Below are positions 253-29,335 of a DNA stretch of 64,000 bases, piece by piece (position 1 is the stretch's first letter; the number at the start of each line of letters is the position of its first letter). Origin of the DNA: Christensenellaceae bacterium (GTDB lineage Bacteria; Bacillota; Clostridia; Christensenellales; Borkfalkiaceae). Below the pieces are notes generated by a model. The model saw nothing but the letters and a program-made list of their open reading frames with translations, had not been told where the DNA came from and did no database searches. The position numbers and the translations under genes were made by a program. The stretch spans positions 6,012 to 70,011 of the forward strand of contig JAZNAX010000029.1 of NCBI GenBank assembly GCA_045586765.1, in the 5' to 3' direction.

Positions 253-1926
253 ATGCAATACAAAAGTGATATTGAAATTGCGCAAAGCATAACCCCAAAA
301 CACATTTTAGAAGTTGCAAAAACAGCTGGCATTGATAATAACTACTTAGAACAATACGGCAACTATAAGGCAAAGATAGACCTTTCTATCTTAAATGAAA
401 CAAAAAGAGAAAATGGCAAACTTATTTTAGTTACTGCCATCACTCCAACCCCAGCCGGCGAAGGCAAAACAACAACTACTGTTGGTCTTGCTGACGGACT
501 TAAAAAAATAGGCAAAAACGTTATGGTTGCTTTAAGAGAACCATCTTTAGGTCCTGTTTTTGGTGTTAAGGGTGGTGCTGCTGGTGGTGGCTATGCTCAA
601 GTTGTGCCAATGGAAGATATTAACCTTCACTTTACAGGTGACTTCCATGCAATCGGTGCAGCAAACAACTTGCTCGCAGCAATGATTGATAACCATATTT
701 ATCAAGGCAATGAGCTCGGCATCGACCCAAGAAGAATTACTTGGCATAGATGCGTTGATATGAACGATAGACAACTTCGTTTTGTCGTTGATGGTTTAGG
801 TGGCAGAGTAAACGGCACTCCAAGAGAAGATAGTTATGATATAACTGTTGCTTCTGAAATCATGGCTGTATTATGTTTGTCTTCTTCTATCACGGACCTT
901 AAAAATAGAATTAAAAACATTATTATCGGTTACACTTATGACAACAAACCTGTAACGGCAGGTCAACTTAACGCTCAAGGCGCTATGACTGCACTATTAA
1001 AAGATGCGCTTAAGCCAAACCTTGTTCAAACTTTAGAAGCAACACCTGCAATCGTTCATGGTGGACCTTTTGCAGACATTGCACACGGTTGTAACTCAAT
1101 TATGGCAACAAAAATTGCCTTAAAACTTGGCGATTATGTTGTAACAGAAGCAGGCTTTGGTGCTGACCTTGGTGCTGAAAAGTTCCTTGACATTAAGTGT
1201 AGGGTTGCAGGTTTAAAACCTGATGCAGTTGTAATCGTTGCAACAATTAAGGCGTTAAAAATGCACGGTGGCTTGCCAAAGACAGAACTTGGCACTGAAA
1301 ACCTTGATGCACTTGAAAAAGGTATTCCAAACCTTCTTCGCCACGTTCATAACATTAAAGATGTTTATAAACTTCCATCAGTTGTTGCAGTTAACCGTTT
1401 CCCAACAGATACCGATGCTGAAATTGATTTAGTTATCAAAAAATGTAAAGAACTCGGCGTAAACGTTGTGCTTTCAACCGTTTGGGCAGAAGGTGGCAAG
1501 GGTGGCGAAGCCTTAGCACACGAAGTTGTTAGACTTTGCGAACTTGAAAATGACTTTACATTTAGTTATGAAGACAGCGATAGCATTGCAACAAAAATCG
1601 AAAAGGTTGCAACTAAGGTTTATGGTGGCGATGGCGTTATCTTTAGCGAAGAAGCATTAAAACAAATTAAAACGTTAGAAGAATTAGGCTTTGATAAAGT
1701 GCCTGTTTGTATTGCAAAAACACAATACTCTTTCTCTGACGATATGACAAAACTCGGCGCACCAACAGGATTTAAGATTACTGTTAGGTCACTTAAAATT
1801 TCAGCAGGCGCAGGCTTTATCGTTGTTTTAACAGGCAACATTATGACAATGCCAGGCTTACCTAAAGTTCCAGCAGCAGAAAAGATTGACGTTGATGAAA
1901 ACGGCAAAATTTCTGGTCTTTTCTAA
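253..1926 (+). CDS. fhs: formate-tetrahydrofolate ligase
   Basis: 557 aa. Carries the hallmark [16 protein letters not shown]-loop and is collinear with FTHFS over the full length. RBS GGAGAA lies upstream. Confidence 0.95.
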
Positions 1927-1948
1927 AATTTATTGTTAAATATGAATA

Positions 1949-1996
1949 AAAGCATTTATAAATTTGCCTTTTGGTTGACTTATAAATGCTTTTTTA
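1949..1996 (+). terminator. rho-independent terminator after fhs
   Basis: AAAGCATTTATAA (1949-1961) pairs with TTATAAATGCTTT (1980-1992) and is followed by a T run. Confidence 0.7.
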
Positions 1997-2007
1997 TGTG
2001 ATAATTT

Positions 2008-2700
2008 ATGAAACTAAAAAAATTAAAATACTTTACAAAAACTGAACTTGCCATTTGGATAGGTTCAATAATTTTAATCGTGTCTGCATTTTGCATTTTT
2101 GATGGCAAAAAATATCTAAACATGATTGCTTCGTTAGTGGGAACAACGGCTCTTATCTTTTGTGCAAAAGGAAATCCATTAGGGCAAGCGCTTATGATAG
2201 TCTTTGCTTCGCTTTATGCCTATATATCTTTATCGTTTAAGTATTATGGCGAAATGATGACGTATCTTGGCATGAGTTTGCCTATGTCTGTCGTGGCACT
2301 TATATCGTGGCTAAAAAATCCATCTAAAGAAAGCAAGGCAGAAGTTAAGGTTAACACGCTTTCAAAAAAAGAAATGCTTTTTGGCTTTATTGTTGCGCTT
2401 GTTGTGACAGGTATATTTTATTTTATAATGAGAGAATTAGGAACATCAAACTTAGTTATAAGCACTGTTTCTATCACAACAAGTTTTTTTGCAGCCTATT
2501 TAACTTTTAGAAGATGCGAATACTTTGCTTTAGCATATGCGCTTAACGATATCGTGCTTATTATTATGTGGATAATGGCAACTATAAAAAACATAAGTTA
2601 TATATCGGTTATAATTTGCTTTTTAGTTTTTTTAGTAAACGATACTTATAGCTATTTAAATTGGAAAAAAATGAAAGCACGCCAACGAGACGCCGAATAA
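2008..2700 (+). CDS. pnuC: PnuC-like nicotinamide riboside / NMN-family transporter
   Basis: 230 aa polytopic membrane protein. Size, about 7 TM layout and the C-terminal LVNDTYSYLNW motif resemble the PnuC family. Recognised by eye only. Confidence 0.5.
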   Translation: MKLKKLKYFTKTELAIWIGSIILIVSAFCIFDGKKYLNMIASLVGTTALIFCAKGNPLGQALMIVFASLYAYISLSFKYYGEMMTYLGMSLPMSVVALISWLKNPSKESKAEVKVNTLSKKEMLFGFIVALVVTGIFYFIMRELGTSNLVISTVSITTSFFAAYLTFRRCEYFALAYALNDIVLIIMWIMATIKNISYISVIICFLVFLVNDTYSYLNWKKMKARQRDAE

Positions 2701-2718
2701 AATTTATAAAATATGCAA

Positions 2719-2756
2719 CAAAAAACAACCTTTGAGTAGTTCAAAGGTTGTTTTTA
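2719..2756. terminator. bidirectional terminator shared by pnuC-like and XRE genes
   Basis: CAACCTTTGA (2726-2735) pairs with TCAAAGGTTG (2741-2750). An A run lies on the left and a T run on the right. Confidence 0.7.
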
Positions 2757-2966
2757 GTTTTCAAAGCCAAAAAATAAGTTTGGCGAAACATTAAAATTAA
2801 CACAAATAGAATAAATGCAGTCATAAGTAGGCTTTTTTCTTCCCAAAAGCCATTGGCTGACAGTCGTTTGATTTACACCTATAATAGATGCAAATTTTAA
2901 TTGACTTAAATCATAATCGTGCATTATTTGTTTAATTATTTCGATATAAGGCATTTCTTCTTTCAT
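2754..2966 (-). CDS. XRE-family helix-turn-helix transcriptional regulator (70 aa)
   Basis: LSQLKFASIIGVNQTTVSQWLLGRKKPTYD is a canonical Cro/C1-type HTH. The gene is transcribed away from the palindrome array. Confidence 0.75.
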   Translation of the reverse strand: MKEEMPYIEIIKQIMHDYDLSQLKFASIIGVNQTTVSQWLLGRKKPTYDCIYSICVNFNVSPNLFFGFEN

Positions 2967-3034
2967 AATAAATTCTCAAGGAAACTATATATTAAGCACC
3001 TTTTAACAAGGAACATAAAAATTATACCAGTCAA

Positions 3035-3381
3035 TAGGTCAAAAGTCTTGAAATAGGTCAAAAGACCTAAAACCAATATAAAATAAAACTACTAGTCGTG
3101 TAAATCAAAAAAATGGACTTATATAATGTAGGTGTAGGTCAAAAGACCTATATGCAAGTAGAATGAAGATAAATGCTGTTTTTTAATATGAGTACAGGTT
3201 AAATGACCTATAGAAAAGTTTGATGAAGAAAATGTGGCTTTGCAGAACATGGTTTTAAGGCAAAATGCCTTATATAATGTAGCAATAGGTTAAAAGACCT
3301 AGTCTTAATTTATCCTAAGTATACAAAGTCGATATTATAGTAAATATAGGTCAAAAGACATTATTTAGGTCATTTGACCTA
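3035..3381. repeat. array of eight 14-16 bp inverted-repeat sites, consensus TAGGTCA-NN-(T/A)GACCTA
   Basis: Copies: 3035-3049 (degenerate), 3054-3069 (TAGGTCAAAAGACCTA), 3135-3150 (TAGGTCAAAAGACCTA), 3195-3210 (CAGGTTAAATGACCTA), 3257-3272 (variant TAAGGCAAAATGCCTTA), 3286-3301 (TAGGTTAAAAGACCTA), 3347-3362 (right half degenerate) and 3366-3381 (TAGGTCATTTGACCTA). Two longer 33-nt repeats, 3118-3150 and 3269-3301, match at 29 of 33 positions. Confidence 0.85.
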
Positions 3382-3530
3382 TAGGTGAAAATAAAACAAT
3401 TTAGGTAAACTTATATTATAAAAGGGAGAGAAAGATAAGAATAAATATTTAGCAAGGAAAGAGAAGGGGCATAAACAAAGTCTTTAACAAAAAACAAGAA
3501 GAAAGGACATCCCTATTTGGCCACTAGACT

Positions 3531-3567
3531 ATCAATTGAAGCACATGGGTCAATTGATTGTCTTTTT
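3531..3567 (+). terminator. terminator-like hairpin downstream of the palindrome array
   Basis: ATCAATTG (3531-3538) pairs with CAATTGAT (3551-3558) across a 12-nt loop, followed by TGTCTTTTT. Confidence 0.45.
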
Positions 3568-3570
3568 CTA

Positions 3571-3599
3571 TTGTTTTAAATCAAAAAAAGTGATATAAT
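3571..3599 (+). promoter_or_regulatory. sigma-A type promoter (TTGTTT-17-TGaTATAAT)
   Basis: -35 TTGTTT at 3571-3576, 17-nt spacer, and an extended -10 TGATATAAT (TG 3591-3592, TATAAT 3594-3599). Confidence 0.55.
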
Positions 3600-3600
3600 T

Positions 3601-3617
3601 ATGACAAAAGATGTCAT
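3601..3617. promoter_or_regulatory. operator-like palindrome ATGACA-aaaga-TGTCAT at the predicted transcription start
   Basis: Perfect 6-bp arms immediately downstream of the -10 box. The layout (arms separated by an A-rich spacer) matches that of the array sites. Confidence 0.4.
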
Positions 3618-3654
3618 TATGCTTGTTTATAATAAAAGATAAAAGGAAAAGATT

Positions 3655-3942
3655 ATGGCTATTGGAATAGGAAAGAATTTCGCATATTCAGGTAAAGGTG
3701 GCAATATGCGCGCATATTGCTGACGTAAGGATATATATTTGGGAAAAGAAGAAATTGATTTGACAGGACCGGACGGAGATGGTGTGGTGTCGATTGGCCC
3801 AGATTGTTTTAATGGTTTTACCAATTTAAAGCATGTAAAATTGCCAAACACTATCGTAAGAATTTGCTCAATGGCTTTTTATTCATGTAAAAAATTAGAA
3901 GAAATAAATTTAAATGATGATATAACTAAAATAGGTGAGTAG
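3655..3942 (+). pseudogene. remnant of a BspA-type leucine-rich-repeat (LRR_5) protein gene, with an in-frame TGA and a 3' truncation
   Basis: ATG 3655 (RBS AAAAGGAAAAG) opens a frame that hits TGA at 3721-3723. The same frame then continues as ...GPDCFNGFTNLKHVKLPNTIVRICSMAFYSCKKLEEINL..., matching the LRR units of the intact genes at 22795 and 47701. Only about 2 repeats remain. Confidence 0.55.
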
Positions 3943-4051
3943 AAATGTGCGAAAGGACGCGAATGGCTACAATAGGTCAATCTTAATAATTATTTGAAAT
4001 AAGTAATGTACTGTATTAAAAATTGTGGTTGAAATTTTTACAAGGGGAATT

Positions 4052-7000
4052 ATGAAAACCTTAAACGAAGAAAGAAAAATTAAAGAATATTTAGCGGAAT
4101 ATAATTTACCATTAATAGTTAAAAAGACTAGCTGGTGGGGGGATTTTTGTTTTTCTATAGAAAAAGTTTCTAATAACGTTGCGTATGGTAAAAGATTAAA
4201 AAGTGGTGTTTTTTATGATGATTTTACTTGTAGCATAAATGAATTATATTTGTTGTATGGCAAAAACGAGAAGATTGTTGAAGAAAATTCATCTTCATTA
4301 CCGTTTGTTACAAAAGTGGAGCCAAATCCAAATAATTTAGAATTAGATAAGTCTAAGTATATTAGTGGTCGTACAACGCTTTTTGTAAAAGATGGTTCTA
4401 AAAATAAAAAAGTTGTTTTTTTACGGTTTGCAATTAAAAATGGTAAAGATGTTATATATGTAAAGAAAGGTGAAAAAACACTTTTTTATGCTTTTCCAAA
4501 TACAATATATCTTTTTCCTAACAAAGATGATGTTGAAGATGCAATATCAAAGGAAAATAGACAAAATACTAATAATAAACTGATTTTATCCATTTTATCG
4601 ACTTTTAATAAATTACCAAAAGCAACAAAAGCAAGTAAGTCCCAAGATGTTGAGAATAAAAAAGAAAGAACTTACCATAAAAAAGTTGACAATGAACTAA
4701 AAATCAAATTACAAGAACCTAAAAATAGATTGGCGATAGCAGAACATGATGCAAAATATGCAGAACAAGATTATGTAGAAGCAATAAGAAATGCGAGAGA
4801 AAATGGTGACGTCTTAGATTCGTTTTCTCAATCAAGTCATTATATAACTCTTCAAACCATACAACCAAGAATACAAAGCGCACAAGCTGAAATTAATAAA
4901 ATTAATGAAATTATATCAAAACCATATTTTGCAAGAATAGACTGTGGTTCAAATATAAATGACTTACATACAGCATATATTGGAGATAAGGATATACCAG
5001 GGTTTGTTGTAGATTGGCGTAATTCTGATGTGGGAAATGCATATTATCAATCCGCTTTTTTGATGAATAAAGACGGTATTTTATTGGTTTTAAAAAGATT
5101 GATAGAAATTCAACATGGCGTTTATAAAAAGTACAAGGATGAAATAAACTTGTATGGTTCTAATGAAATTATAAAAAATGATATGAAAAAAGCGACAGAT
5201 GATTTCTTAAATGAATTATTACAACAAAGCCGTCTTGATAAAAAGACCCATGATATAATTAAGACTATACAGTCAGAACAATATGAAATAATAACTTCAA
5301 ACTTTGAACAAAATGCGGTTGTTAATGGTTGTGCGGGTTCTGGTAAAACAATGATAATGTATCATAGATTATCGTATATTGCATACAACTATGAGAGTAA
5401 AACAGGGGAAAGCTTAAACCCAGAAAATATTTATGTAATTACACCTTCGGCGTATTTTAACATAAATAATATGGACTTGTTGGAAAAATTATCATTAAAT
5501 AAAATTAACCATATGCAATTTTCAGGGTTTATTGATGAGTTTATAAGATTATACTCAGTAAAATACAAAATTGCACCGCTGAATTATTTAATTGAAATTT
5601 CTAATTTTAATGACAATAATGAATGTTGTGATTTTTATAGTGAATCAACATATAATAAATTTGTTTGCCAATTAGAAGAGATAGATAAAAATGAAAAAAT
5701 TAAGAATAGTTATATTGAGTGGGTATTGAATCTAGTTAATAAGATATTGCTAGATGTGGGTTTTGAGCGACTAAATATAATAAATGACGAACTTGTTAAT
5801 ATGGTTGATATTTTATATAGCGATAAATATTATAGAAACCGTTGCTTTATAAAAAACGATTCTCTATTGGTTGATTTAGAAAATAAGTATTATCAAAAAT
5901 CTGCCATATGTGATTTTTCATATCAAAACATTATTGCGTCATTAAACGAAATGGATAAGACAAAAACTACATATAAAAAAAGGAAAAAGAGATTAGATAA
6001 AAGCGTGTCTATATTCAAGAGCTGTCTTTCACTTAAGACTTTAATGAATGATTATGGTGGGGTAGAGACGAATATAAAAAAGTTTTGGAATATTTTCGAA
6101 AAACCTGAAATTTTCAAGAAAATGCTTGCGCTAATTAACGTTGAAAACATCTTAAATTCTATAAAAAACAAAAGCTCTTCAAAAAAAGATTATTTGTTAA
6201 GAGGTGTTTTTGTCGCCTCTAACATGTTTAGCAGTTCGAATTTAAGAAACTTACCGTTATATTTTTTAAATGCTTTAACGAGAAAATATGGCTCATTAAT
6301 AGATAAAGAATCCTTTGTTTTTATAGATGAATTTCAAAATTTTTCTTCGTTTGAAATTAAAGTTTTAAAAAATGTTTTTTCAAATCCGGTTTTTAATTTA
6401 TATGGCGATTATGACCAGAGACTAGGAAGGAAAGGGGAAGATATAAAAGAAAATTTACATGCTTTGTTGTCTCCTAATATGTACAATCTTAATATAAATT
6501 ATCGTAATGCAAAACAAATTACAGAATATATTAACAAAATAGTTAATAAAAATATGCATCCTATTGGTGTTGATGGTGAAGTTAATGTTTGCAAACTCAA
6601 CGACTGTTCATTTGATATTGTTGATAGAACTGCTATAATTGTAAAGGAAGTTGAATTAAGTAAGGCAGTTTTATTATCTTGCTTTAAAAAAGATGAATTA
6701 AATTTTATTTATGAGTCGAATGAATTTGATTATAAAAAATACAACGTGCTAAGTGTCGACGATAGTAAAGGGCTTGAGTTTGACAATGTTTATGTGTTTA
6801 CCGCAAATATGAATGATAATGAAAAATACGTAGCGCTTACACGTGCTTTAGAGAAGTTAACGGTAATAGACGATGAGGTGTTTGAAGAAGTAGTAAACCT
6901 TAAAAAAAATGATAGTGTTAAAACAAAAGAACTGCCAGAAAAAGAGATTATTAATAAAGGCGAAGCTGTTGAAGTAATAAAAGAAAAAAAATATTTGGAT

Positions 7001-7264
7001 GATAACAATGCAGTGATAGGCGAACAATTCAAAACAAATAGTGTTGAATGTGTATATTTAATTAGTCAAGGTAATAAAGAAAAGAATAAAATAAAGGAAG
7101 GCAAACAAGAGATGGAAGAATTATTAAAAGAGCGAGAACATCTTATGTGTGAATTAAAATTAAATAAAGGAATATTTAAAACTAAAAAAAGAAGCGAAAT
7201 AGAAAAAGAAATAATTGACCTGGATGGTAAAATAATTAACAAGATGTATGAATTATTGTCATGA
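4052..7264 (+). CDS. HelD-like UvrD/Rep superfamily-1 helicase/ATPase with extra N- and C-terminal regions (1070 aa)
   Basis: Walker A GCAGSGKTM (about nt 5330-5350), motif II FVFIDEFQNF (about 6320-6340), NYRNAKQI, SKGLEFDNVYVF and YVALTRALEKL. The HelD-type N-terminal signature is KPYFARIDCG...YIGDKDIPGFVVDWRNSDVGNAYYQ (about 4921-5050). About 330 aa are inserted between Walker A and motif II. Start moved from GTG 4025 to ATG 4052, which sits behind RBS AAGGGGA. Confidence 0.8.
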   Translation: MKTLNEERKIKEYLAEYNLPLIVKKTSWWGDFCFSIEKVSNNVAYGKRLKSGVFYDDFTCSINELYLLYGKNEKIVEENSSSLPFVTKVEPNPNNLELDKSKYISGRTTLFVKDGSKNKKVVFLRFAIKNGKDVIYVKKGEKTLFYAFPNTIYLFPNKDDVEDAISKENRQNTNNKLILSILSTFNKLPKATKASKSQDVENKKERTYHKKVDNELKIKLQEPKNRLAIAEHDAKYAEQDYVEAIRNARENGDVLDSFSQSSHYITLQTIQPRIQSAQAEINKINEIISKPYFARIDCGSNINDLHTAYIGDKDIPGFVVDWRNSDVGNAYYQSAFLMNKDGILLVLKRLIEIQHGVYKKYKDEINLYGSNEIIKNDMKKATDDFLNELLQQSRLDKKTHDIIKTIQSEQYEIITSNFEQNAVVNGCAGSGKTMIMYHRLSYIAYNYESKTGESLNPENIYVITPSAYFNINNMDLLEKLSLNKINHMQFSGFIDEFIRLYSVKYKIAPLNYLIEISNFNDNNECCDFYSESTYNKFVCQLEEIDKNEKIKNSYIEWVLNLVNKILLDVGFERLNIINDELVNMVDILYSDKYYRNRCFIKNDSLLVDLENKYYQKSAICDFSYQNIIASLNEMDKTKTTYKKRKKRLDKSVSIFKSCLSLKTLMNDYGGVETNIKKFWNIFEKPEIFKKMLALINVENILNSIKNKSSSKKDYLLRGVFVASNMFSSSNLRNLPLYFLNALTRKYGSLIDKESFVFIDEFQNFSSFEIKVLKNVFSNPVFNLYGDYDQRLGRKGEDIKENLHALLSPNMYNLNINYRNAKQITEYINKIVNKNMHPIGVDGEVNVCKLNDCSFDIVDRTAIIVKEVELSKAVLLSCFKKDELNFIYESNEFDYKKYNVLSVDDSKGLEFDNVYVFTANMNDNEKYVALTRALEKLTVIDDEVFEEVVNLKKNDSVKTKELPEKEIINKGEAVEVIKEKKYLDDNNAVIGEQFKTNSVECVYLISQGNKEKNKIKEGKQEMEELLKEREHLMCELKLNKGIFKTKKRSEIEKEIIDLDGKIINKMYELLS

Positions 7265-7375
7265 TGTTCTTCGCTTAATATTTATTGTGAAATAGAAAGC
7301 GAACCAAAAAATGGCGACACGGGTGGAATGCTAGTTGTCATGTTGTTCAGGGATATAATGATAATATTAATTTAT

Positions 7376-7409
7376 GCAAAAGCGTTAGAAAGTTTCTAAC
7401 GCTTTTTTG
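7376..7409 (+). terminator. rho-independent terminator after the helicase gene
   Basis: AGCGTTAGAA-agt-TTCTAACGCT followed by TTTTTT. Confidence 0.75.
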
Positions 7410-7501
7410 ATTTTTGGTTCTTCTAGTTAGGCACACTTTTAACAACTTATTACCTAATTCGAAAAGCAATAGTATGTTTGTTTTTTATGAATATTTTAAA
7501 C

Positions 7502-7538
7502 AAAAAAATACCTTCCTAGGGAAATGCTTAGGAAGGTA
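7502..7538 (-). terminator. rho-independent terminator of the small minus-strand unit
   Basis: On the minus strand, TACCTTCCTAAG...CTAGGAAGGTA is followed by a T7 run (complement of 7502-7508). Confidence 0.7.
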
Positions 7539-7654
7539 TATCTATGTTATTTAGTTTTTTTCTGTGCCTTTAACTATAAAGATTTGATTTAAGCAACTGT
7601 GCGATTTAATCTTTTGCCTTCTTTAAGGGCAATTTAATTAAGAATTTTATCTTT

Positions 7655-7708
7655 TTATTTAGTCTGTTTAGGCACAGACTTTTGCTCTGCTTCTATTAAA
7701 CTGTTCAT
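7655..7708 (-). CDS. possible 17-aa ORF (MNSLIEAEQKSVPKQTK) inside the small transcript
   Basis: ATG lies 9 nt downstream of AAGGGGG. Hydrophilic, with no family assignable. May not be translated. Confidence 0.2.
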   Translation of the reverse strand: MNSLIEAEQKSVPKQTK

Positions 7709-7769
7709 TGGTCTGCACCCCCTTAAAAAGATTTTCTTCTTTTCACTCCTTATCTTTATTTTCACCTTG

Positions 7770-7798
7770 ATTGTATCACAAGCTTACTTAATTGTCAA
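7770..7798 (-). promoter_or_regulatory. consensus sigma-A promoter on the minus strand (TTGACA-17-TGaTACAAT)
   Basis: Complement of 7793-7798 is TTGACA and complement of 7770-7775 is TACAAT. The spacer is 17 nt with a TG extended -10. Confidence 0.7.
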
Positions 7799-7842
7799 TA
7801 TAGTTAGAAAAAATATAGTGATTTAAATTTTTAAAAACCTAC

Positions 7843-7871
7843 TTGACTGCAAGTGCTAATCATAGTATAAT
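7843..7871 (+). promoter_or_regulatory. sigma-A promoter TTGACT-17-TATAAT for the rimK-like gene
   Basis: TTGACT 7843-7848 and TATAAT 7866-7871. The ORF-track TTG start at 7843 is the -35 box itself. Confidence 0.65.
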
Positions 7872-7878
7872 TATATGT

Positions 7879-8757
7879 ATGGGGCAAGGAATTATAGTAA
7901 TAAATCCATATCAAATTCCAAAAGAAAGCGTGCATCAAGCAAATAGGCTTAAAGATGAACTTAACGCTTTAGGCGTGTCGGCAAGTATTGTAACCGACAC
8001 CTTTTTAACGAGCATAATTTTAGATAATAAAATAAAAACTGAGTTAAAAGATGTTGATTTTGTTATCTATTTGGATAAAGATAAATATCAGTCTGAAATC
8101 CTAGAAAGTTTAGGAATAAGGCTGTTTAATTCGCATAAAGCAGTTCGTGCTTGCGATGATAAGGGCACGACATATCTAGCATTATTAAATAGTGGGCTAA
8201 ATATCCCCAAAACTATTTTCGGTGCGTTATGCTATAATAAAGATATGCCTATTGACACCGAGTGGGCAAAAAAAATAGCAGAAAACTTAGGTTTTCCACT
8301 AATTATAAAAGAAAGTTTTGGCTCTATGGGTAAGGGCGTTTATCTAGCAAATAATTTAGATGAACTTATAGAAGTGATGGAAAAAGTTAAACTTAAACCA
8401 CACCTATTTCAAGAATATGTTGGCGAGCCTGGTGTTGATGTTAGGGTTATCGTTATCGGTGGAAAAGCCGTTTGCGCCATGGAAAGAAGAAACGACAGCG
8501 ATTTTCGTTCTAATGTTGCGCAAGGTGGTTATGGCAAGAAGATAACGCTAGATGATGAGTTTAAGAAAAGCGCCGAAAGGTGTGCTGAAATTTTGGGACT
8601 TGATTATTGTGGGGTTGACCTTCTTTATGGCAAAGATAAAAAGCCTTATGTTTGTGAAGTTAATTCAAACGCCTTTATTTCTGGTATAGAAAGTGTGACA
8701 GGCTTTAACGTCGCTAAAGCTTATGCAGAGCATATTATATCTTGCTTAAATAAATAA
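7879..8757 (+). CDS. rimK: RimK-family ATP-grasp ligase (alpha-L-glutamate ligase-like), 292 aa
   Basis: ATP-grasp layout with ...PLIIKESFGSMGKGVYL..., ...QEYV...GVDVRVIVIGGK..., RSNVAQGG and ...YCGVDLL...PYVCEVNSN. ATG 7879 is the only plausible start and has no SD. Confidence 0.8.
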   Translation: MGQGIIVINPYQIPKESVHQANRLKDELNALGVSASIVTDTFLTSIILDNKIKTELKDVDFVIYLDKDKYQSEILESLGIRLFNSHKAVRACDDKGTTYLALLNSGLNIPKTIFGALCYNKDMPIDTEWAKKIAENLGFPLIIKESFGSMGKGVYLANNLDELIEVMEKVKLKPHLFQEYVGEPGVDVRVIVIGGKAVCAMERRNDSDFRSNVAQGGYGKKITLDDEFKKSAERCAEILGLDYCGVDLLYGKDKKPYVCEVNSNAFISGIESVTGFNVAKAYAEHIISCLNK

Positions 8758-25327: not shown

Positions 25328-28300
25328 ATGACACGAATTTTACCTGAAATTGAATGTGGCAAGGTTAAAAGAAGAACTTTTAGCAAAATTAAAGAAGCAA
25401 TCGAACTTCCTTATCTTGTCAAAATTCAAAAAGACTCTTATGACGCTTTTATTAAAGATGGCATAGGCGAGGTCTTAGAAGATTTTTCACCAATCACAGA
25501 CTATTCTGACCACTTTGAACTCTATTTCTTAGATTACAACCTTGATGGTAAGCCAAAGTACGATGAAAAAGAGTGCAGGGATAGAGATGCTACTTACGCT
25601 CGCCCACTTAAAGTTAAAGTTAGACTTGTTAATAAGGTGACTGATGAAGTTATCGACCAAGAAGTTTTCATGGGCGATTTCCCACTTATGACAGACAACG
25701 GCTCGTTTATTATCAACGGTGCTGAAAGAGTTATCGTTTCTCAACTCGTTCGTTCTCCAGGCGTTTATAACGGCTCTGAAATGGACAAGTCTGGTAGACG
25801 CCTTTTCGACACTACTGTTATCCCTTCAAGGGGTGCTTGGCTTGAGTTTGAACAAGATTCACAAAACGTTTTGTGGGTGCATGTTGATAGAACGAGAAAA
25901 CTTACTGCTACAGTTCTTTTAAGGGCTTTAGGTTTTGGTAGCGATGATGCCCTAAACGAACTCTTTGAAGGCAACAAGATGATTTTAGATACTGCTGAAA
26001 AGGATACTTCTAAATCTGAAAGCGATGGCCTTATCGAGTTATATCGCCGTTTGCGTCCAGGTGAAATACCAACAGAAGAGGCAGTTAAGCAACATCTTAA
26101 AAACTTGTTCTTCGATGCAAGAAGATATGACCTTGCAAGAGTTGGTAGATATAAATTTAACAGAAGATTAAGGCTCGGCGCAAGAATCGTTGGCTTAGTT
26201 AGTGCAGACGACATCATTACAAGTGATGGCGAAGTTTTGGCTACAAAAGGTCAAAAGATTTCAAAGCCTATTGCAGAACAAATCCAAAACGCTGGTATTA
26301 GCACTTTCGTTGCTGATGTTAATGGCGAAAGACATAAAATCATTTCTAACAACGTTGTAAACTACAAAGAAGTTACAGGACTTAACCCAGACTGCTTTGG
26401 TTTATTAAAGTACGTTTATTTCCCAACCCTAGAATTTTCTAAGGTTGTATATCAAACTGCAAAAGAAAACGGCGTTGAAAAAACTGCTGAAATCTTAAAA
26501 GAGCAAATCAACGCAATGTTCTATCTTGAAGAAAAGCAAATTCCAAGTGGGGAAGAAAAGCCAGAAGACAAGAAGAACGAAGAAAAGGCACTTGAAATTA
26601 GAACTAAGTTCATCAATGCTTGTCTTTGCTATTATGATATTATCGAAAGTGGAGTTGTTCCAGAAAGATTAGATGCTGAAACAAGAAAGACAATCCGTCC
26701 ACTTGTTGAAAAATTAAATCATAAACACATCACTGTTGATGATATCGTTGCTTCAGTTTCTGTAAACTTAGACTTAGCATTTGATATCAACACAGTTGAC
26801 AATATCGACCACTTAGGTAACCGTCGTGTTCGTTCAGTTGGCGAATTACTTCAAAACCAATTTAGAATCGGTATTGCAAGACTTGAAAGAGTTATCAAAG
26901 AAAGAATGGCAACTCAAGACCCTAAAGATGTTTCACCACAAGGTTTAATCAACGTGCGTCCTGTAAGTTCTGCTATTAAGGAATTCTTTGGTTCATCACA
27001 ATTATCACAATTTATGGACCAAACAAACCCAATCGCTGAACTCACACACAAGAGAAAACTTTCTGCTCTCGGCCCTGGTGGTTTGAATAGAGATAGAGCA
27101 ACATTTGACGTTCGTGACGTTCACCACTCTCATTATGGTAGAATGTGTCCTATCGAAACACCTGAAGGACAAAACATCGGTCTTATCTCATCACTCGCTG
27201 CTTATGCTAAGGTAAACGAATTCGGCTTTATCGAATCACCTTATAGAAAGGTTGAGCACGTGCTTGATGAAAATGGCAATATGCAAACTATCGTTACAGA
27301 ACAAGTTGAATACTTGACTGCTGACGAAGAAGATAACTACATCGTTGCACAAGCAAACGAACCACTTATCGATAACAAATACTTCGCTAATGACCGTGTT
27401 TCATGCAGACACAGAGATGAAATTACCGAAGATGTTAAAGAAAAGATGGATTATATGGATGTTTCACCAAAACAACTTATATCTGTCGCAACAGCACTTA
27501 TTCCGTTCTTAGAAAACGACGATACCAACCGTGCACTCATGGGCTCTAACATGCAACGTCAAGCCGTTCCACTACTTTGCCCAGAAAATGCTATAGTTGC
27601 AACCGGTATTGAAAGAAGAATCGCATACGACTCAGGCGTTATGGTAAACGCAGCCAACGCCGGTGTTGTTGAAAGCGTTGCAAGTGACCTTATCGTTATT
27701 AAGGAAGATGACGGAAACTTAAGACAATATACACTCAAGAAATTTGAGCGTTCTAACCAAGGAACTTGCCTAAATCAAAGACCAATCGTTGATAAGGGCG
27801 AAAGAATTGAAAAAGGACAAACTATCGCAGACGGCCCATCAACTAAAAACGGCGAACTTGCGCTCGGTCGTAACATCTTAGTCGGCTTTATGAGTTGGGA
27901 AGGTTATAACTACGAAGATGCTATCTTGCTTTCAGAAAAACTCGTTCGTGAAGACGTGTTTACAACAATTCACATCGAAGAACACGAAATCGAAGCGAGA
28001 GATACTCGTCTTGGTGAAGAAGAAATTACAAGAGATATTCCAAACGTTGGCGAAGATGCACTTAAAGACTTAGATGAAAACGGTATCGTTAGAATCGGTG
28101 CAGAAGTTAACAGTGGCGATATTCTCGTTGGTAAGGTTACACCTAAGGGCGAAACCGAACTCACACCAGAAGAAAGACTATTAAGAGCAATCTTTGGTGA
28201 AAAGGCAAGAGAAGTTAGAGATACATCTCTAAAAGTTCCACATGGTGAAGGTGGTATCGTTGTAGACGTTAAAATCTTTACTCGTGCAAATAAAGATGAA

Positions 28301-29335
28301 TTATCTCCAGGTGTAAACAAACTCGTTAGAGTATATATCGCTCAAAAGAGAAAGATTAGCATCGGTGACAAGATGGCTGGTCGTCACGGAAACAAGGGTG
28401 TTATCTCAAGGATTTTACCAGAATCAGATATGCCATTTATGGCTGATGGCACACCACTTCAAATCGTACTTAACCCACTCGGCGTTCCATCTCGTATGAA
28501 CATCGGTCAAGTTCTTGAAGTGCACTTAGGTTTAGTATGTAAACAACTCGGCTGGAAGATTGCAACACCTGTATTCGATGGTGCAACTGAAAGCGATATT
28601 AGAGAATTATTAAAAGAAAACAATATAGTTAACCCAGACGGCGAAGTTGATGGTAAGATTCAACTTTACGATGGTAGAACGGGCGAACCATTTGAAAACA
28701 GAGTTACTGTTGGTCAAATGTATATGATTAAGCTTATCCACTTAGTTGACGATAAGATTCACGCACGTTCAACAGGTCCATACAGCCTTGTTACACAACA
28801 ACCTTTAGGTGGTAAGGCACAATTCGGTGGACAACGTTTCGGTGAAATGGAAATTTGGGCGCTTGAAGCATACGGCGCAGCGCACATCTTGCAAGAAATC
28901 TTAACCGTTAAGTCTGACGATATCGTTGGTAGGGTTAAGACATACGAATCAATCGTTAAAGGAACAAATATCAGCGAACCTGGTATCCCAGAAGCATTTA
29001 AGGTATTATTAAAAGAATTGCAAAGTTTGGCACTCGATATGAAAGTGCTCACAGAAAACAAAGAAGAACTTGCGCTTAAAGACCTTATCGAAGGGGATAT
29101 CGATGATATGCCTTATGTTCGTGAAAAAGATACTCGTGAAGAAGTTGAACTTGATGAAATCGAAGGCGATATTCCTGAAACAATCTTCGAAGATAGCGAA
29201 TCTGTTGAAATTGATGATGAATTTAATTTCACTAAAGATATGTTTGAAGATGACGATGATGAAATAGACACAACAATTCCAGATGATGATATGTTCGACG
29301 ATGATGAAGAACTTGAATTTGAGGATGAGGAATAA
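25328..29335 (+). CDS. rpoB: DNA-directed RNA polymerase subunit beta
   Basis: 1335 aa with conserved RpoB blocks throughout. ATG 25328 behind AAGGAG is preferred over the ORF-track start 25226. The C-terminal tail is acidic. Confidence 0.97.

Follow-up and report, generated by a model that had tools for sequence, protein, structure and literature searches.

An accessory, domain-extended HelD-like ATPase with a predicted N-terminal double barrel in an uncultured Christensenellaceae bacterium

A large SF1 ATPase gene with a HelD-like core

The stretch of DNA analyzed here (hereafter the window) spans 64,000 nucleotides (nt) of contig JAZNAX010000029.1 from an uncultured Christensenellaceae bacterium (assembly GCA_045586765.1), and carries a gene for a large superfamily 1 (SF1) ATPase, P0001, with an XRE gene, a leucine-rich repeat (LRR) gene remnant and a rimK-like gene as its neighbors. 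Our results firmly support the membership of P0001 in the HelD superfamily, as part of a distinct, domain-extended and mobile lineage. The gene lies on the forward strand behind the XRE gene and an array of palindromes, just where the original prediction, made from the sequence alone, had placed it, and its reading frame is translated into 1070 amino acids (aa) without an internal stop. A GTG codon at 4025, which would add nine codons, was rejected as the start in favor of the ATG at 4052, because a ribosome-binding site (RBS) lies just 5' of the latter and the relatives of P0001 begin at the same methionine. All motifs that had been quoted for this protein could be located: KPYFARIDCG (residues 290-299), YIGDKDIPGFVVDWRNSDVGNAYYQ (309-333), GCAGSGKT (426-433), FIDEFQNF (757-764), NYRNAKQI (816-823), SKGLEFDNVYVF (905-916) and YVALTRA (926-932).

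Both the sequence profile and the predicted fold assign the core of P0001 to HelD first, which bears out the identity originally proposed from its motifs. The best NCBIfam model is NF041464 (HelD_BACSU; E 9e-21), whose positions 7-764 (of 779) match residues 201-941, and a phmmer search against all PDB chains returned HelD chains only, from Bacillus subtilis (6wvk_H, E 2.6e-14) and Mycobacterium smegmatis (6yxu_H, E 3.2e-6). Based on an alignment of 33 relatives, AlphaFold2 modeled the full-length protein with a mean predicted local distance difference test (pLDDT) score of 78.6 and a predicted template modeling (pTM) score of 0.63. When this model was compared to the PDB with Foldseek, the seven top matches were HelD chains of RNA polymerase (RNAP) complexes, with E-values from 4.5e-21 (6wvk_H) to 8e-14, and UvrD and PcrA began below all of them, at E 2e-8. 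Pfam gave weak SF1 matches alone (UvrD-helicase and Viral_helicase1).

HelD proteins are defined by an arm that enters the RNAP secondary channel, an absolutely conserved DWR Trp-cage, a clamp arm inserted in domain 1A, and the lack of a 2B domain (PMC8655204, PMC7749167). Counterparts of all these elements are found in P0001. The secondary-channel arm corresponds to two modeled helices (residues 198-250 and 257-289, pLDDT 82-94) that align to residues 4-100 of B. subtilis HelD and are covered by the Foldseek alignment to 6wvk_H (836 columns). The Trp-cage is represented by D321-W322-R323, of which W322 and R323 are invariant in the 33 family members. Domain 1A is split, 323 aa separating GCAGSGKT from FIDEFQNF, and the inserted region is mostly helical in the model; the original estimate of about 330 aa was thus right as to length, but not in treating the spacing as an extra feature, since a clamp arm inside 1A is what the literature takes to define HelD and this layout is therefore the ordinary one. 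Domain 2A is modeled as one continuous alpha/beta domain, and there is no room for a 2B domain because just ~86 aa lie between NYRN (816-819) and KGLEFD (906-911). The ATPase site is complete, K432, D759 and E760 being invariant among the 33 relatives, as are G785, D786, Q789, Y817, R818, G907, E909, T930 and R931.

The best-conserved part of the arm is the acidic tip of its hairpin (A248-R249-E250-N-G...D256, family pattern ARExG...DD), where A248, R249 and E250 are each kept in 27-31 of 33 sequences; for D256 and D257 the numbers are 29 and 22. Class I HelD and Gre factors have acidic tips, and by analogy the conserved tip of P0001 fits a specific acidic probe of that kind.

Two predicted barrels at the N terminus

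The region ahead of the HelD-like core, which had been estimated at about 210 aa, measures ~197 aa, as the HelD profile starts at residue 201 and the alignment to HelD chains of the PDB at residue 198. It was modeled (pLDDT 81) as two small beta-barrels followed by linker helices, and its conserved residues in the family comprise an NPNxL motif, F123, F126, F148-P149 and K158-D159-D160. A Pfam scan of this N-domain and of the C-terminal tail yielded chance-level matches only (Ski7_3rd, Anth_Ig), in agreement with the earlier remark that neither terminus holds a recognizable motif. The fold class of the modeled N-domain is clear: an exhaustive structural comparison retrieved Tudor, chromo and SH3-like domains with Z-scores of 4.6-6.7. 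Among these are barrels that interact with RNAP, namely those of CarD (Z 5.4), Mfd (5.0), the beta-lobe-bound C-terminal domain (CTD) of UvrD (4.8) and the Tudor domain of PcrA (4.7), and eukaryotic chromatin readers and ribosomal SH3-like proteins score equally.

An ESM Atlas feature search with residues 1-160 gave a best score of 0.77, below the useful level, and the Atlas shape search retrieved unnamed small proteins with template modeling (TM) scores of up to 0.69 by the match, the CarD_TRCF_RID cluster (PF02559) reaching 0.26-0.28. No match at E <= 0.001 was obtained in the viral fold collection BFVD. A complex prediction of the barrels (residues 1-160, alignment A2) with the first 560 residues of the RpoB of this genome (window 25328-27007) scored 0.02 and weighs neither for nor against an interaction.

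A profile of the N-domain searched against 1.84 billion representative proteins gave 67 matches, of which the strong ones belong to the P0001 family or are fragments of its members. Barrel 1 on its own is also found N-terminally in other HelD-like ATPases, at residues ~118-200 of three SNF2 ATPases of 920-1039 aa (P0150, P0151 and P0152), and three times in a dual-OB (DuOB) protein, P0135. This suggests that barrel 1 is a portable targeting module common to SF1 and SF2 nucleic-acid motors. NCBIfam ruled out that the SNF2 proteins are RapA. Two members of the P0001 family, P0031 and P0033, contain long runs of G[FY][DN]xxG[FY][ND]-type repeats in or ahead of the barrel region (alignment A1, columns ~150-400), such as GFNRDGFNIHGYSREGYNIQGFDRDGF.

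A lineage apart from class I HelD

We found ~30 metagenomic relatives of 970-1320 aa, which share 40-45% identity with P0001 over ~80-95% of its length; one of them has a name, as a hypothetical protein of a Ruminiclostridium metagenome-assembled genome (MAG). For comparison we collected 16 bona fide class I HelD proteins from Bacillota genomes, all scoring above the NCBIfam cut-off; such proteins occur in 42 of 201 Bacillota genomes, with 420-1163 bits. Two trees were built on 631 core columns, one under LG+G4 and one under a C20 mixture model, and rooted on the other SF1 helicases of this genome. In both, the 16 class I sequences form one clade (support 84-85) and the P0001 family stands outside it in a clade of its own (support 95-100), which agrees with the possibility, raised in the original prediction, of a distinct class. 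The LG+G4 tree joins the family and other oversized HelD-like proteins in a 36-row sister clade to class I (support 99). No description of this family was found in a full-text literature search, in which the only HelD-like matches were papers on canonical HelD and HelR, and the matches for HelD in anti-phage defense all came from the English word 'held'.

A degenerate zinc ribbon in the tail

The C-terminal extension had been put at about 180 aa; it is shorter, ~129 aa (942-1070), because the HelD match reaches residue 941 and the motifs V and VI quoted in that same prediction lie at 905-932. It consists of 19% lysine and 18% glutamate, and pLDDT falls below 50 over residues 951-1009. As to the coiled coil proposed for it, helices are modeled at 942-957, 1008-1037 and 1047-1069 around a low-confidence stretch (958-1007), so that a coiled coil is plausible but not established.

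Most relatives (26 of 33) have a C4 zinc ribbon (CQxCGGxFKGxFxKxCxxCGxKKDY) at the end of a variable linker rich in Lys and Glu; for this ribbon Pfam gave sub-threshold DZR matches only. At the same site P0001 and a 91%-identical twin (94.6% nucleotide identity) read MCELKLNKGIFKTKKRS, where the KGxF core is kept and one cysteine is left. The ratio of non-synonymous to synonymous substitution rates (dN/dS) against the twin is 0.28 for the whole gene, 0.23 for the core and 0.18 for the N-domain, the lowest of the segments; for the tail it is 1.13, calculated from the small counts of 23.5 non-synonymous and 4.5 synonymous changes. Judging by these sequence comparisons, the N-domain and the motor are under purifying selection while the tail degenerates, and what might have been taken as a new module is instead the decaying remnant of a zinc ribbon.

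Genomic setting and expression signals

The host genome is a 1.35-Mb MAG of an uncultured member of the Clostridia, 93% complete, in which no second HelD-like gene was found. Neither P0001 nor any other HelD-like match was detected in 24 congeneric species (0/24), and among the 399 scored genomes of the class the N-domain profile matched one, the present one. The interval between fhs and the rimK-like gene measures 5.95 kb here (window 1926-7879) versus 1.1-1.6 kb in three congeners (L022, L023 and L025), and the inserted DNA has a G+C content (GC) of 27-30%, with 27% for the gene itself, versus 33-38% nearby. Rarity in the class, absence from congeners, a variable slot and low GC together confirm the accessory context that had been proposed for the gene. 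In one congener, the same slot holds a small XRE-like gene. The slot in the window also contains a pnuC-like gene, which tblastn did not find in the fetched regions of L022, L023 and L025.

The gene appears to have its own expression signals (Table 1). A site at 3571-3599 is the probable promoter of the HelD-like cassette, as far as its match to consensus and its conservation tell, and the hairpin just before it, at the 5' edge of the conserved cassette, would shield the cassette from upstream transcription. The palindrome directly downstream of the -10 box differs in sequence from the XRE-type palindromes. The leader of the gene retains the last ~25 nt (about 3945-3968) of a DUF4379-type gene remnant. 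Promoter, palindrome and leader are kept in two other metagenomic contigs, L058 and L059, while the DNA between promoter and gene differs, being an LRR remnant in the window and a DUF4379 remnant in L058 and L059; for this reason we conclude that the gene travels with its own expression signals. The signals at 3526-3650 had earlier been read as driving the dead LRR gene; they are conserved 5' of the twin in L058 and L059.

In the same window, rpoB lies at 25328-29335. Its open frame extends 34 codons 5' of the likely ATG, and the encoded RpoB contains, around residues 400-480, an insertion that is rich in Lys and Glu and specific to the lineage.

Table 1. Annotated features of the HelD-like gene and its flanks, in window coordinates
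Feature	Position	Strand	Basis
Terminator-like hairpin (14-nt arms, one mismatch) with T-run	3526..3569	+	Sequence; conserved 5' of the 91%-identical gene in L058
Promoter-like site TTGTTT-17-TGaTATAAT	3571..3599	+	Consensus match; -10 identical in L058 and L059, -35 also in L058
Palindrome ATGACAAAAGATGTCAT, candidate operator directly 3' of the -10 box	3601..3617	+	Invariant in the window, L058 and L059
Conserved leader with putative RBS AAGGGGA (4042-4048)	3945..4051	+	Alignment with L058 and L059; gene calls of L058
HelD-like SF1 ATPase gene (P0001)	4052..7264	+	1070 codons and stop
N-terminal beta-barrel 1 (aa 8-68), SH3/Tudor/KOW-like	4073..4255	+	Models md5272357f082 and mb066abbcac23, pLDDT ~85-93 mostly; Z 4.8-6.7
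N-terminal beta-barrel 2 (aa 100-155), Tudor/chromo-like, then linker helices (aa 158-186)	4349..4516	+	Models, structural matches
Antiparallel helical hairpin (aa 198-289), counterpart of the HelD secondary-channel arm	4643..4918	+	Model, HelD alignment
HelD-specific beta domain: PYFARID (291-297), YIG (309-311), DWR Trp-cage (321-323)	4919..5149	+	Alignments, model
Domain 1A, first half, with Walker A GCAGSGKT (aa 426-433)	5273..5566	+	Sequence, alignments, model
Mostly helical insertion in 1A (aa 506-749), counterpart of the HelD clamp arm	5567..6298	+	Model; spanned by HelD profile and 6wvk_H alignments
Domain 1A, second half: motif II DEFQN (759-763), GDYDQ (785-789)	6299..6442	+	Sequence, alignment, model
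Domain 2A, continuous (aa 798-941)	6443..6874	+	Sequence, model, profile alignment
Lys/Glu-rich C-terminal tail (aa 942-1070), degenerate linker and C4 zinc ribbon	6875..7261	+	Alignment, dN/dS, model
Intrinsic-terminator-like hairpin (13 pairs and T-run)	7378..7406	+	Sequence; 114 nt 3' of the stop codon

Relatives in defense islands and on mobile elements

We surveyed the surroundings of the relatives at nine distinct places, which were chosen for their long contigs and have no matched background. One relative lies between TmtA-like and Macro genes, just 3' of a gene for a DrmD-like SNF2 protein (PADLOC, 200 and 349 bits), and another follows McrBC. The relative in L060 is directly preceded by DruE-like and GajB-like genes (L060:1-7882), encoding a 2110-aa DEAD/MZB protein whose last 933 residues match DruE with 106 bits, and a 694-aa GajB-like UvrD helicase (137 bits); the four-gene set of DruE-like, GajB-like, HelD-like and Macro genes may represent a Druantia-like variant. 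Other relatives adjoin a type II methylase, a resolvase and an integrase; RepA_N, relaxase and NikA genes; or Schlafen-like and WHH genes.

Three contexts have a gene for an orthologous Macro protein of ~345 aa (49-73% identity) starting 3-14 nt 3' of the HelD-like gene, and a fourth has it close by (L010:13586-14617, L060:11717-12769, L062:8955-10001 and L012:5309-6523). The direct succession of HelD-like and Macro genes, with ADP-ribosyl-glycohydrolase genes not far off, marks one subclade of the lineage. This protein has an N-terminal Macro domain and a conserved C-terminal domain of ~110 aa. The HelD-like and Macro genes look like a two-gene module, which the window copy lacks: here the gene is solitary, with its own putative promoter and no Macro partner found. 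ADP-ribosyl-glycohydrolase genes are present in four contexts. The L010 island moreover encodes a free-standing 125-aa protein (L010:19621-19998) that matches only the CTD of the RNAP alpha subunit (E ~1e-14 to 1e-15), so that alpha-CTD-like, HelD-like, Macro and ADP-ribosyl-glycohydrolase genes are found together. The alpha-CTD is a classical target of phage ADP-ribosyltransferases, and the alpha-CTD-like protein of L010 could be a decoy or a sensor.

A probable RNAP-directed motor in genetic conflict

We propose that P0001 is a horizontally acquired member of a rare, uncharacterized HelD lineage, an RNAP-directed motor carried as conflict cargo, and give this reading a probability of about 0.58. 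By analogy with the solved HelD-RNAP complexes, P0001 would dock on RNAP and insert its acid-tipped hairpin (aa 198-289) into the secondary channel, and the main channel would receive the helical arm (aa 506-749). Powered by ATP, the Walker A/B motor (K432, D759/E760) would then open the clamp and drive out DNA and RNA, or some other ligand. The tandem Tudor/SH3-like barrels (aa 8-155) would provide a further hold, either on RNAP or on nucleic acid. Given the recurrent residence of the relatives in defense islands and on mobile elements and their linkage to Macro and ADP-ribosyl-glycohydrolase genes, the role of the lineage most likely lies in phage or mobile-element conflict through the transcription machinery and not in housekeeping. 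The evidence from genomic context leaves defense, counter-defense and RNAP protection undistinguished.

Several observations weigh against this proposal. We infer RNAP binding from homology, and P0001 scores 73.4 bits against NF041464, far from the curated cut-off of 419. Its position apart from the class I clade means that P0001 may have diverged in function; the trees that show this are the product of quick searches and cover HelD of class I, but not of classes II and III. The extended motif DWR[A/S]P of classes I and II, or DWRX[A/S]P of class III, is absent: P0001 reads DWRNSD, the family consensus is DWRHPE and some members have SWR, whereas 15 of the 16 class I sequences show DWR[A/S]P at the same alignment columns. 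Nor do the barrels single out a role in RNAP binding, because their middling Z-scores are shared with chromatin Tudor and ribosomal SH3-like domains. As for the genomic contexts, residence in defense islands is only an association, no single neighbor is conserved across all of them, and a search with a Macro query did not find the Macro partner in the genome of the window.

Four other explanations were considered, and we judge each of them less likely than the carriage of an RNAP-directed motor as conflict cargo. An SF1 helicase or translocase that acts in defense on nucleic acid independently of RNAP, in the manner of GajB, UvrD or Nhi, and reuses HelD-like arms for another target, would suit the residence of these genes in defense islands, the Pfam matches to UvrD-helicase and Viral_helicase1, and the weak PADLOC matches to GajB and NERD+UvrD (E 1e-6 to 1e-7), which lie near Walker A and the C-terminal motifs. 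These PADLOC matches, however, span 40-90 residues versus ~740 for HelD, and in Foldseek HelD surpasses UvrD and PcrA by six to thirteen orders of magnitude in E-value. P0001 moreover conserves the HelD-specific DWR Trp-cage and hairpin, is devoid of 2B and nuclease domains, and no GajA-type partner was seen in the examined contexts; we consider this explanation unlikely, if the least so of the four. A very divergent HelD that serves as a housekeeping recycling factor and removes stalled transcription complexes ranks next, and is improbable too. It is favored by the intact gene under purifying selection, by its being the sole HelD-like gene found in a nearly complete genome (93%), and by the fact that many Bacillota carry one or several HelD genes (PMC8655204). 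Yet a housekeeping factor would hardly be expected to be absent from 24 of 24 congeners, to have its N-domain in 1 of 399 genomes of the class, to sit in a low-GC insertion between core genes, or to have its relatives on mobile elements and in defense islands.

More doubtful still is a protection of RNAP of the HelR type, with the motor dislodging an inhibitor, be it a small molecule, for instance a rifamycin-like drug, or a protein, for instance one encoded by a phage. HelR, a class II HelD, is reported to protect RNAP from rifamycins (bioRxiv 10.1101/2021.05.10.443488, 10.1101/2021.05.10.443476), which provides a precedent, and P0001 is encoded by an accessory and mobile gene, as resistance determinants often are. 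But the HelR models NF041254 and NF041258 match P0001 with 58.0 and 55.4 bits against cut-offs of 750 and 1100, in partial alignments around residues 312-470, and P0001 aligns best with class I and not class II. No resistance genes, for rifamycin or otherwise, were seen nearby, where the neighbors are of restriction and defense type. We regard it as very improbable, finally, that P0001 is a decaying and functionless remnant, a cargo gene stranded in a recombination-scarred island. The dead LRR gene, the DUF4379 remnant and the orphaned operator array do indicate scarred surroundings, the zinc ribbon has been lost in a tail with a dN/dS of ~1.1, and the Macro partner is absent. Against this, a frame of 1070 codons stays open at 27% GC, the N-domain and core have dN/dS values of 0.18-0.23, every catalytic motif is intact, and a putative promoter, RBS and terminator are all present.

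In a more far-reaching reading, the family might constitute the motor of an undescribed 'RNA-polymerase guard' (or counter-guard) module, in which a mobile, barrel-targeted HelD-type ATPase, often together with Macro and ADP-ribosyl-glycohydrolase proteins, would recognize RNAP hijacked or ADP-ribosylated by a phage or plasmid and strip or reset it. This reading is speculative and we think it rather unlikely; were it true, the transcription machinery itself would be a monitored hub of bacterial immunity.

Known HelD proteins are chromosomal factors of 650-870 aa that fall into three classes. The lineage described here puts the RNAP-prying architecture in a new setting: it has a new targeting domain, its genes are rare mobile cargo in the company of restriction, DISARM-like and Druantia-like genes, and they are linked time and again to those of enzymes reversing ADP-ribosylation. 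Should RNAP binding hold, P0001 would offer a new RNAP-binding scaffold for structural work and an entry point to whether RNAP-directed motors serve bacteria or their mobile elements in immunity or counter-immunity. For genome annotation, the labels 'UvrD-helicase domain protein' and 'DNA helicase IV' are unsuitable for these genes.

Comparison with known systems

With GajB and other UvrD-like ATPases of defense islands, P0001 shares the SF1 ATPase motifs and the residence in such islands, but it differs from GajB in having HelD-specific elements and in being without a 2B domain and an OLD-nuclease partner. Membership in Gabija as GajB was rejected, as the best GajB match reaches 25 bits over ~48 residues (PADLOC) and no OLD-family nuclease neighbors the gene. 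P0001 does not belong to UvrD/PcrA/Rep either: a 2B domain is missing, and its NCBIfam matches include no uvrD, rep or pcrA model, the Pfam UvrD-helicase model giving 25.1 bits at a cut-off of 23.

There are other oversized HelD-like ATPases in Clostridia, such as a 1229-aa group annotated as 'DNA helicase IV' (P0042), P0144 and P0146, none of which is characterized. They belong to the same sister clade and have HelD as their best NCBIfam model, and P0144 and P0146 share the first N-terminal barrel with P0001; yet identity is 30-40% over part of the protein and the terminal domains differ. Class II HelD, including HelR (M. smegmatis MSMEG_2174, PDB 6YXU, 6YYS and 8QU6; HelR of Streptomyces and M. 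abscessus), is of the same superfamily and overall fold (Foldseek E ~1e-14 to 1e-15), and HelR shows that an accessory HelD can act protectively. The sequence match is far weaker than with class I, being partial and of 48-58 bits, and the primary-channel loop of class II was not identified in P0001.

Class I HelD (B. subtilis YvgS/HelD; PDB 6WVK, 6ZCA and 6ZFB) is the best match in both sequence and structure. From residue 198 on, P0001 has the same order of parts, from the hairpin arm through the beta domain (PYF.RID/YIG/DWR), Walker A, the helical arm in 1A and motif II to a 2A domain without 2B. It differs from class I by an identity of 18% in the structural alignment, by the addition of a ~197-aa two-barrel N-domain and a ~129-aa tail, and by the mobile and accessory nature of its family. 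The hairpin tip is conserved in the P0001 family, whereas the arms of HelD are reported to be its least conserved regions (PMC7749167).

Each barrel of P0001 superposes on the five-stranded Tudor-like barrels of CarD, Mfd, PcrA and UvrD (PDB 4L5G, 6AC6, 7EGS and 5DMA), with Z 4.7-5.4 and a root-mean-square deviation (rmsd) of 1.8-3.4 Å over 48-52 residues for 4L5G, 7EGS and 5DMA, and Z 5.0 with an rmsd of 8.0 Å over 87 residues for 6AC6. No sequence similarity to them was detected, and the barrels of P0001 differ from them in being tandem and N-terminal; in CarD, Mfd, PcrA and UvrD the barrel is joined to a motor or factor acting on RNAP, as would be the case in P0001.

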